A DNA stretch of 64,000 nt, taken from NCBI RefSeq assembly GCF_003334305.1, contig NZ_QOWS01000008.1. The stretch is one strand, 5' to 3'. Positions 8,547 through 8,814 of this stretch are shown here, one piece after another. The DNA is from Escherichia coli (GTDB lineage Bacteria; Pseudomonadota; Gammaproteobacteria; Enterobacterales; Enterobacteriaceae). A program made the position numbers and the translations under genes. Below the pieces are notes generated by a model. That model was not told the origin of the DNA. It ran no database searches and saw only the letters and a program-made list of their open reading frames with translations. Position 1 is the first letter of the stretch, and every line of letters begins with the position of its first letter.

Positions 8547-8575
8547 AATATATTTTCAATAAAATGAATGTTTAT

Positions 8576-8595
8576 ATCTTCATTAAAATGAAGAT
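8576..8595. promoter_or_regulatory. perfect 20 bp palindrome in the yhfZ upstream region (candidate operator)
   Basis: atcttcattaaaatgaagat; arms atcttcatt / aatgaagat are exact reverse complements. Confidence 0.3.
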
Positions 8596-8663
8596 AAGTG
8601 GCAACTGTGAGATGTGGAAACGGCGAGGCGCTTCACATTTTTTCGGATTATTGCAAATGAGGA

Positions 8664-8687
8664 TAAAAAAACCGGGTTTCCCCGGTT
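8664..8687 (-). terminator. intrinsic terminator downstream of trpS (minus strand)
   Basis: Minus strand reads aaccggg-loop-cccggtt hairpin followed by a T7 tract. Confidence 0.5.
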
Positions 8688-8756
8688 TCAGAGTGATGAC
8701 GAAGTGATTTATTCGACAATGCGAGCAAAGGGTAATTCCCACTGGCGCTTGCCTGC

Positions 8757-8795
8757 TCCCCTCACCCTAACCCTCTCCCCAAAGGGGCGAGGGGA
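8757..8795 (+). repeat. GC-rich extragenic repeat (Box C-like), copy 2
   Basis: cccctcaccctaaccctctccccaaaggggcgaggggac; same orientation as copy 1. Confidence 0.5.
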
Positions 8796-8814
8796 CCGTC
8801 CGAGCGTTTTGATA

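Follow-up and report, generated by a model that had tools for sequence, protein, structure and literature searches.

YhfZ and the php-yhf cluster are among the functionally uncharacterised genes of E. coli, and our search of the literature found no published operator, regulon or inducer for the cluster. We analysed a 64,000-nucleotide stretch of E. coli DNA (hereafter the window) in which the minus strand carries dam-rpe-gph-trpS (trpS at 8815-9819), a 268-bp spacer, yhfZ (7641-8546), yhfY, yhfX and yhfW, in that order. Because of this gene order, the spacer must end the dam-trpS transcript and then start that of yhfZ. A first, sequence-only reading of the spacer had picked out a palindrome close to the yhfZ start as a possible operator, together with a terminator-like hairpin and a G+C-rich repeat. 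Here we ask what the palindrome is, which protein would act on it and with what effect, and which of its neighbours in the spacer belong to yhf regulation.

7641..8546, minus strand: yhfZ, the regulator gene (open reading frame, annotation, Pfam HTH_41 and YhfZ_C, NCBIfam YhfZ_full)

Two adjacent copies of a dyad motif precede yhfZ, and a third precedes yhfX

The 20-mer atcttcattaaaatgaagat occupies positions 8576..8595 and begins 30 nt from the yhfZ ATG at 8546. It had been described as a perfect 20-bp palindrome 30 nt before yhfZ; the position is correct but the perfection is not, since the two central bases are AA and the reverse complement of the 20-mer differs at its centre. The real form is 10+2+10, with arms of 10 nt each (8575-8584 and 8587-8596) that are 100% complementary and separated by 2 nt. 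Of random sequences matched in composition, ~0.3% have an inverted repeat with arms of at least 10 bp. We refer to this element as site A; its core, TTCA-N6-TGAA, lies at 8579-8592, and the dyad symmetry of the motif places the centres of TTCA and TGAA 10 bp, or one helical turn, apart. A preceding aaaatgaatg had been read as a half-site related to the palindrome. The relation holds, but these letters are part of a complete second site with its own TTCA-N6-TGAA (site B; exact match at 8555-8568). Positions 8549-8568 are a 90% direct copy of 8573-8592, with a period of 24 bp; the two sites lie 24 bp apart, centre to centre, and site B stops 4 nt short of the yhfZ ATG. A third copy, site C, is found in the spacer between yhfY and yhfX, 28 nt upstream of the yhfX ATG, with its motif match starting at 7213.

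8575..8596, no strand assigned: site A, TATCTTCATT-AA-AATGAAGATA (inverted repeat, invariance of the arms in E. coli, conservation at orthologs)
8551..8572, no strand assigned: site B, AACATTCATTTTATTGAAAATA on the minus strand (90% direct repeat with site A, exact motif match)
7207..7232, no strand assigned: site C, TAAATATTCA-AAAAAA-TGAATATTTA, in the yhfY-yhfX spacer, with perfect 10-bp arms

In the coordinates of K-12 MG1655, site A is 3512373-3512394 and site C is 3511005-3511030. Across the whole window, TTCA-N6-TGAA occurs four times (at 8555, 8579, 7213 and 46430) against 1.2 occurrences expected, and three of the four fall in the two yhf spacers; the fourth, at 46430, has a GC centre and probably arose by chance. 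When the local sequence was shuffled with its dinucleotides preserved, two sites within the 117-bp promoter part were obtained in 1 of 20,000 shuffles, and the yhfX site was recovered in 69 of 20,000. We found no publication describing the motif, and no E. coli regulator is known to have this consensus.

The motif is retained from Escherichia to Vibrio

For phylogenetic footprinting we used 80 loci (459 kb) from species-representative genomes, chosen through an alignment of YhfZ orthologs. The genera represented are Escherichia, Citrobacter, Klebsiella, Pluralibacter, Trabulsiella, Cedecea, Buttiauxella, Chimaeribacter, Lelliottia, Superficieibacter, Atlantibacter, Serratia, Photorhabdus, Xenorhabdus, Providencia, Vibrio and Photobacterium. 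These sequences contain 172 exact matches to the motif, whereas 8 are expected from composition, and 155 of the 172 are in the spacers upstream of yhfZ and yhfX; since many of the loci are related, such counts overstate the number of independent events. The consensus, TATnTTCA-N6-TGAAnATA, is kept across at least 14 genera, from Escherichia to Vibrio. With upstream DNA registered on the start codon, almost all loci show the motif near -46 (site A), near -22 (site B) or at both places, and its offsets to the yhfZ start are fixed while the flanks diverge. Escherichia, Citrobacter, Klebsiella, Trabulsiella, Buttiauxella, Cedecea, Serratia, Xenorhabdus and Providencia have site A ~46 nt before the yhfZ start. 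Site B is ~22 nt before it in Enterobacteriaceae and Photorhabdus, a distance that becomes ~25-30 nt in Vibrio and Photobacterium. Before yhfX, 73 of 75 loci have a nearly invariant site C, while neither the rest of that spacer nor the distance to the ATG is conserved. Where the gene order is altered, the motif stays with the start of the operon: it precedes yhfY, and also yhfX, in Pluralibacter gergoviae, and there is a single site in Vibrio, where yhfZ-yhfY-php-yhfU are contiguous. The footprint draws its force from retention of the motif across families whose flanking DNA cannot be aligned.

Variation within E. coli locates the conserved positions more finely. The 468 bp around the palindrome are 100% identical in many strains, and each of 5,426 complete genomes matches this sequence at least in part. 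A 53-bp piece of the promoter is present in 5,080 of the 5,426, at 99% identity to the window or better in 1,481 and at 80-90% in 2,740. We aligned representative E. coli alleles to locate the differences. Among the E. coli alleles examined, none of the 16 arm positions of site A varies; the single arm change seen is in E. albertii. Read on the minus strand, the 6 bp at the centre are TTTTAA in the window, AATTCC in K-12, and AATTCA or TTTTTA in other alleles, so that four positions differ; the probability that four changes all fall in the 6 central of 22 positions is p=0.002, in a calculation made post hoc. As the arms are constant and the centre is variable, the conserved feature is the pair of half-sites, and the perfect palindrome is one allele of it.

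Sites A and B overlap the candidate promoters of yhfZ

YhfZ has a winged helix-turn-helix (HTH; Pfam HTH_41) followed by a YhfZ_C domain that resembles a solute-binding protein; the C-domain, PDB 2OZZ, is the only part of YhfZ whose structure has been solved. In the AlphaFold model (pLDDT 92.9), helices at residues 8-21, 32-38 and 43-55 and a beta-hairpin at 59-74 are followed by a type-2 periplasmic-binding-protein-like domain, and residues 43-55 form the predicted recognition helix. Among non-self structures, the closest in fold are LysR-type regulators and solute-binding proteins. Our search for literature on HTH_41 and YhfZ_C found only a survey of solute-binding proteins, and the literature that mentions YhfZ contained neither a reported binding site nor a binding experiment or ChIP for yhfZ.

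Two promoters can be proposed for yhfZ in E. coli, and a CRP-like site lies upstream of both:

8622..8637, minus strand: CRP-like site, TGTGA-agcgcc-TCGCC, identical to TGTGA-N6-TCACA at 8 of 10 positions
8599..8604, minus strand: candidate -35 element TTGCCA, with a 17-bp spacer and a weak -10 element, GAAGAT (8576-8581), inside site A
8614..8619, minus strand: alternative -35 element TTCCAC, with 17 bp to a -10 element, TATCTT (8591-8596), that is the left arm of site A

CRP sites are defined by the sequence TGTGA-N6-TCACA centred near -41.5, -61.5 or -71.5. Transcription from the TTGCCA promoter would start near 8569, which puts the centre of the CRP-like site at about -60.5, close to the class I position. 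The TTCCAC promoter implies a start near 8584, within site A, and the centre of the CRP-like site would then be at about -45.5, which corresponds to no known class. Nearly all Enterobacterales loci have [TC]GTGA-N6-T[CT], in its fuller form TGTGA-N6-TCnCn, at a fixed distance of 89-91 nt before the ATG, and the CRP-like site is invariant within Escherichia. The TTG of TTGCCA is conserved at the same offset in all genera; equivalents of the TTCCAC promoter are TTGACA-17-TATCTT in Providencia and TTGCAC-17-TATATT in Citrobacter. Three low-GC members of the family (loci L095, L099 and L100) have clear promoters of the form TTGACA/TTGTTT-17-TAnnnT, with the operator just downstream of the -10 element. 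A sigma-54 promoter was ruled out, as there is no GG/GC -24/-12 pair near TTGCCA. On the plus strand, promoter-like matches at 8527-8556 lie inside yhfZ and have no plus-strand gene after them.

We found no entry for yhfZ, yhfX or b3383 in the supplementary transcription-start data of Conway 2014, Kim 2012, Ettwiller 2016 or the ROSE paper; the position of the promoter, and with it the choice between repression and activation, is inferred. Site A overlaps both candidate promoters. Whichever promoter is used, the -10 region falls in site A and the start or early leader in site B, and in the low-GC relatives the operator comes just after the -10 element; for these reasons we favour autorepression. 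YhfZ could instead bind the same sites and activate, for example by remodelling a promoter of suboptimal spacing or by acting with CRP. The weak -10 candidates and the CRP-like site do suggest an activator-dependent promoter, and the fold of YhfZ, a winged HTH with a solute-binding-protein-like effector domain, resembles that of LysR-type regulators, many of which activate. However, sites A and B together cover the -10 element, start region and leader of both candidate promoters, and a site downstream of the -10 element, as in the low-GC relatives, is typical of repression. We consequently regard activation as unlikely, and autorepression as the preferred mode. Site C may act inside a longer transcript, because no conserved promoter lies upstream of it.

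The half-site changes with the predicted recognition helix of YhfZ-family proteins

If YhfZ is the protein that binds these sites, changes in its recognition helix should be mirrored in the DNA. From E. coli to Vibrio neither the recognition helix nor the wing varies, in keeping with the invariant half-site. We turned to more distant relatives. A search for YhfZ-family proteins yielded 669 members, and upstream DNA was available for 37 distant loci, with 29-57% identity. Among the 16 loci whose proteins have S-V-G at the start of helix 3, TTCA-N6-TGAA occurs within ~100 nt upstream in 15, and the sixteenth is one mismatch away. Proteins with x-R-G are instead accompanied by TAC(A/G)-N6-(C/T)GTA, in 11 of 19 loci, and by TTCA-N6-TGAA in none of the 19. 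With the loci treated as unrelated, the association between helix residue and half-site has a Fisher p = 5e-9. An exact palindrome of either type is absent from 8 R-class loci and from both N-class loci; the upstream DNA of the latter, relatives with a G-N-G helix (L104 and L184), has no recognisable palindrome. The residue in question in YhfZ is Val43, the first of the predicted recognition helix; its counterpart in FrlR, a GntR-type regulator within the window, is the conserved Arg of the S-R motif.

Because the half-site changes with the YhfZ recognition helix, the operator is most simply the adjacent regulator's own site, and the motif is most likely, judging by these sequence correlations, the binding site of YhfZ. 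The earlier suggestion that the palindrome is a plausible operator for the regulator of the cluster is thus borne out by conservation of the motif at orthologs, invariance of the arms in E. coli and co-variation of the half-site, with binding by YhfZ as the likely explanation. A different protein, such as a global or nucleoid-associated factor or another local regulator, might bind the motif, its presence in the yhf control regions then being due to chance. The sites are A/T-rich and are located in A/T-rich spacers, and the CRP-like site, as a second conserved element in the yhfZ control region, implies that other proteins probably act there. Against this, exact matches in the 459 kb of ortholog loci lie almost exclusively in the two yhf spacers, with one other match in the 64-kb window, and in unrelated metagenomic lineages the half-site follows the recognition helix of the YhfZ-family protein encoded next to it, as it would not if a shared global factor were responsible. 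The half-sites of ArgR and Cra boxes are in the opposite order to those of TTCA-N6-TGAA, and on this ground we rejected an ARG box or a Cra-like site. Hence, we give a different binding protein only a small probability, and take YhfZ to be the most likely ligand of the motif.

The co-variation also raises the possibility of a recognition code in the YhfZ family, which we put forward tentatively, as something short of probable: the first residue of helix 3 (Val or Arg) would dictate the second base of the half-site (TTCA or TACA/TACG) within a fixed 4-N6-4 architecture, with an AC...GT order opposite to that of classical GntR operators. If this code is true, a V43R substitution combined with a T-to-A swap in the operator would re-pair regulator and site, and could yield orthogonal repressor/operator pairs; the alleles of the E. 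coli spacer (TTTTAA and AATTCC) would then tune repression through DNA shape.

The conservation pattern is that of a DNA site

Inverted repeats in leader regions may also act as RNA, and two of the three sites would form moderately stable hairpins if transcribed. Site A has a predicted folding energy of -8.3 kcal/mol and site C of -7.4 kcal/mol, with z about -6 relative to shuffled sequences. Site B is as conserved as site A, yet its folding does not exceed that of shuffled sequences (z = -0.95). Of 74 distinct sites, 50 have no pair at arm position 4/19, the four inner pairs are invariant, and Buttiauxella and Cedecea have an uncompensated TGAT arm in site C. The invariance of the four inner pairs is itself uninformative on pairing. 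No U-run follows the hairpins of the sites, which rules out a role for the palindromes as terminators or attenuators, and a scan of 8000-9300 against Rfam at E<=1 returned only sub-threshold chance matches (snoR25, Antizyme_FSE and whalefall-1). The pattern of conservation, as read from these alignments, is that of a protein-binding DNA site and not of a conserved RNA helix. It is very unlikely that the palindromes are RNA hairpins of the yhfZ leader and yhfY-yhfX junction that affect mRNA stability, processing or translation in place of DNA operators: sites A and C do form hairpins of 9-10 bp that are far better than shuffles, the start codon next to site B lacks a Shine-Dalgarno sequence, and site C could be transcribed, lying between two co-oriented genes, but it is the sequence (TTCA and TGAA being invariant) rather than the pairing that is conserved, the equally conserved site B does not fold, and the hairpins have neither a U-run nor an Rfam family at threshold.

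The rest of the spacer holds a predicted terminator and a boxC-type repeat

The part of the spacer nearer to trpS contains two further elements, and a copy of one of them is found elsewhere in the window:

8658..8689, minus strand: predicted intrinsic terminator of dam-rpe-gph-trpS, GAAACCGGGGAAACCCGGTTTT followed by TTTATCC (terminator scan, RNA fold)
8690..8799, plus strand: strain-variable insert between the trpS stop codon and the terminator, with a boxC-type core at 8757-8799
1740..1782, plus strand: second boxC-type core, a direct copy, between frlR and yhfS

A terminator-like hairpin on the minus strand had been noted at 8664..8687, and the terminator scan and RNA folding confirmed both the stem-loop and the T-run. 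The stem-loop (8689..8668) has 9 pairs, 5 of them G-C, and a 4-nt loop, followed by the T-run, and the element is invariant in all E. coli alleles examined. By these sequence features, which are all those of an intrinsic terminator, the hairpin is predicted to end the dam-trpS transcript. Its distance from the trpS stop codon is 125 nt in the window and ~20-25 nt in S103EC and VE-T9, which are without the insert. The proposal that 268 bp accommodate both trpS termination and yhf regulation is upheld in its two parts, the first by the terminator features and the second by the conserved motif.

The insert is ~107 bp long in the window and absent from S103EC and VE-T9; K-12 has a REP/BIME pair instead. 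Its G+C-rich repeat had been listed (8757..8795) as a feature of this spacer. The repeat is there, but it is not local: its 43-bp core belongs to an interspersed family found at 17-27 places per E. coli genome. Both copies of the core in the window are extragenic, and together (1740-1782 and 8757-8799) they bracket the whole yhf cluster; strain 143 has one hybrid boxC-type copy and no yhf cluster. A copy adjacent to fabI in MG1655 is identical to the repeat at 22 of 22 core positions, and fabI (envM) is the locus at which box C was first named. The boxC family has been described as 22-32 copies of 50-56 bp (PMC2267715). We infer that the repeat is of the boxC type because its copy number, its size and the fabI copy all fit. 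It is a passenger in the spacer, outside yhf regulation. The REP/BIME upstream of yhfZ in K-12 has been listed as a possible attenuator (PMC2965389); this suggestion is inapplicable here, because the window has no REP at that place and the hairpin that it does have is assigned to trpS termination.

A model for yhf regulation

Taken together, the positions of the sites and their co-variation with YhfZ make it probable, in our judgement, that sites A and B are adjacent YhfZ operators and site C a third, through which the yhf genes would be autorepressed, with release by a ligand and input from CRP. A YhfZ dimer would place its two winged-HTH domains on TTCA and TGAA, one helical turn (10 bp) apart, and the A/T-rich 6-bp centre of the site would not be read base by base. 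Sites A and B would overlie the core promoter and the early part of the yhfZ-yhfY transcript, site A being the promoter-distal of the two operators and YhfZ being encoded immediately downstream. In parallel with A and B, site C would guard yhfX-yhfW-php-yhfUTS; one published table groups the yhfX-W-php-UTS genes as a single operon. Bound YhfZ would block initiation or early elongation, by occlusion or as a roadblock, and thereby repress its own expression. A ligand sensed by the YhfZ_C domain would release YhfZ, possibly with modulation by the PRD protein YhfY, and the upstream CRP-like site would add catabolite control as a positive input.

The analysis provides a set of three probable operator sites with coordinates, a predicted CRP input and a candidate specificity residue, and with these given, yhf regulation becomes directly testable. 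A reporter of the yhfZ promoter would be a handle for inducer screens that could reveal the metabolism of the cluster. The findings offer an entry point into an uncharacterised cluster, although they are unlikely to surprise specialists.

Comparison with known systems

The predicted system can be set beside two families of regulators. With GntR-type proteins such as FadR and FrlR/HutC, YhfZ shares a winged HTH of the order alpha1-alpha2-alpha3-beta-beta, and it can be aligned in register with FrlR's GntR domain; NCBI names it 'GntR family transcriptional regulator YhfZ'. A dyad-symmetric site near the promoter of the regulator's own gene, in the case of yhfZ a candidate promoter, is common to GntR-type systems and to the YhfZ motif, and distant members of the YhfZ family keep a GntR-like A-R-G-T-V-Q helix and a half-site containing GT. 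The differences are in the details of each domain. E. coli YhfZ matches only HTH_41 and YhfZ_C, and not PF00392, to which distant members have weak or faint matches; it has Val where the S-R motif has Arg; and its effector domain is YhfZ_C rather than FCD, UTRA or an aminotransferase-like domain. GntR operators have a GT-Nx-AC core. The TTCA/TGAA motif is without a GT...AC core, and the order in R-class sites is AC-N8-GT (TACA-N6-TGTA). By these features YhfZ falls outside the GntR family in the strict sense, having no PF00392, Val in place of Arg and no GT...AC core.

LysR-type regulators such as OxyR, CbnR and BenM resemble YhfZ in combining an N-terminal winged HTH with a type-2 periplasmic-binding-like effector domain, and several sites per control region, as at yhfZ, are typical of them. 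In contrast to these proteins, YhfZ is without the long linker helix, its identity to them is 12-15%, and the large rmsd comes from domain orientation; its operator is not of the T-N11-A form.

The other elements of the spacer conform more closely to known types. The predicted dam-trpS terminator has the G+C-rich 9-bp stem, 4-nt loop and T-run of Rho-independent terminators, after the last stop codon and on the coding strand, and differs in being displaced 125 nt from the stop codon by the repeat insertion. Like boxC, the repeat in the window is extragenic and G+C-rich, with a core of ~43-50 bp. As far as its sequence features indicate, the yhf system would be of the classical autoregulated dyad-operator type, a conventional kind, with a ligand-responsive winged-HTH regulator whose DNA-binding domain is GntR-like and whose overall architecture is LysR-like.

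Variation of the yhfZ promoter and start region

Within E. coli, the yhfZ promoter piece (window 8547-8612) shows unusual divergence: more than half of the genomes have just 80-90% identity across 53 bp of it, whereas the neighbouring segment, 8613-8690, is nearly invariant. The differences are concentrated in the centres of the operators, the TTCA-N6-TGAA sites A and B that are putatively bound by YhfZ, as well as in the stretch that separates site A from the -35-like TTG. The promoter alleles have the appearance of mosaics that arose by recombination between two haplotypes.

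There is no Shine-Dalgarno sequence at the yhfZ ATG (window 8544-8572), and only 4 nt separate the end of site B from this ATG; many orthologs share both properties. The sole site in Vibrio ends ~11 nt upstream of the yhfZ ATG. The yhfZ mRNA may therefore have a very short leader, or none.

Repeats, apparent loss of the yhf cluster and a gene fusion

The interval from the trpS stop to the terminator (window 8690-8814) is an insertion hot spot for repeats, and E. coli carries three or more alleles of it.

Alleles of the trpS stop-terminator interval
BoxC-type insert: in the interval 8690-8814, in the window and ~1,525 genomes
REP/BIME: equivalent interval, in K-12
No insert: equivalent interval, in S103EC and VE-T9

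Two directly oriented boxC-type cores flank the whole yhfS...yhfZ cluster.

BoxC-type copies
1740-1782: 43-bp core, copy 1, direct relative to copy 2
8757-8799: 43-bp core, copy 2, direct relative to copy 1
L004 (the locus from strain 143) 1500-1545: hybrid copy, left flank matching the frlR-side copy and right flank the trpS-side copy

Strain 143 has no yhf cluster, and its arrangement is frlR-REP-(single hybrid boxC-type copy)-trpS. Judging from this arrangement, the cluster looks to have been lost through recombination between the repeats. The yhfZ promoter piece is missing from 346 of 5,426 E. coli genomes.

Within the cluster, 680 bp of php are missing at window 4232-4792, with strain E2865 as the reference. 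What remains joins php codons 1 to ~58 in frame to yhfU as a 186-aa ORF. Of 5,426 genomes, that of strain A7 (from an orangutan; NZ_CP028767) was the only one in which this php-yhfU junction was seen uninterrupted.

Gene neighbourhood and additional sites in the YhfZ family

Window 7262-7624: yhfY, a small PRD-domain gene (TIGR03582, EF_0829/AHA_3910 family)

A gene of this kind follows nearly all YhfZ-family genes examined, including the most distant, and is itself followed by DUF2620, YhfT or phosphotriesterase genes or, in one locus, by a sorbose-type PTS IIB gene. The PRD-gene neighbourhood and the single PTS IIB locus therefore suggest PTS-dependent phosphorylation as an input to a YhfZ-YhfY regulator pair.

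In Citrobacter, Trabulsiella and Buttiauxella, the 3' end of the yhfY gene contains an additional exact TTCA-N6-TGAA match (GCTTCAtgcaaaTGAAGAGGG); site C, the site preceding yhfX, follows ~110 nt further downstream. E. coli has no such match.

~1,205-1,217 nt after the yhfZ start: extra yhfY-internal site, in L011-L013, L021-L022, L026, L030, L033-L034 and L038

This match could be a fourth site, or else a coding coincidence. L099, a metagenomic relative of low GC content (34% identity), has one exact site in the leader of its yhfZ-like gene and two more, at 2499 and 2644, which lie between that gene and the PRD/phosphotriesterase genes. The several sites of L099 argue that the multi-site layout is also ancient.

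In loci L097, L098, L101, L102, L103, L169, L172, L173, L175 and L183, the gene encodes a distant YhfZ-family regulator whose recognition helix reads A/G/S-R-G-T, and 20-60 nt before the gene stands a palindrome with unchanged geometry but another sequence, TACA-N6-TGTA (TACG-N6-CGTA in L101). This palindrome occurs twice in L102, inside a 25-bp direct repeat.
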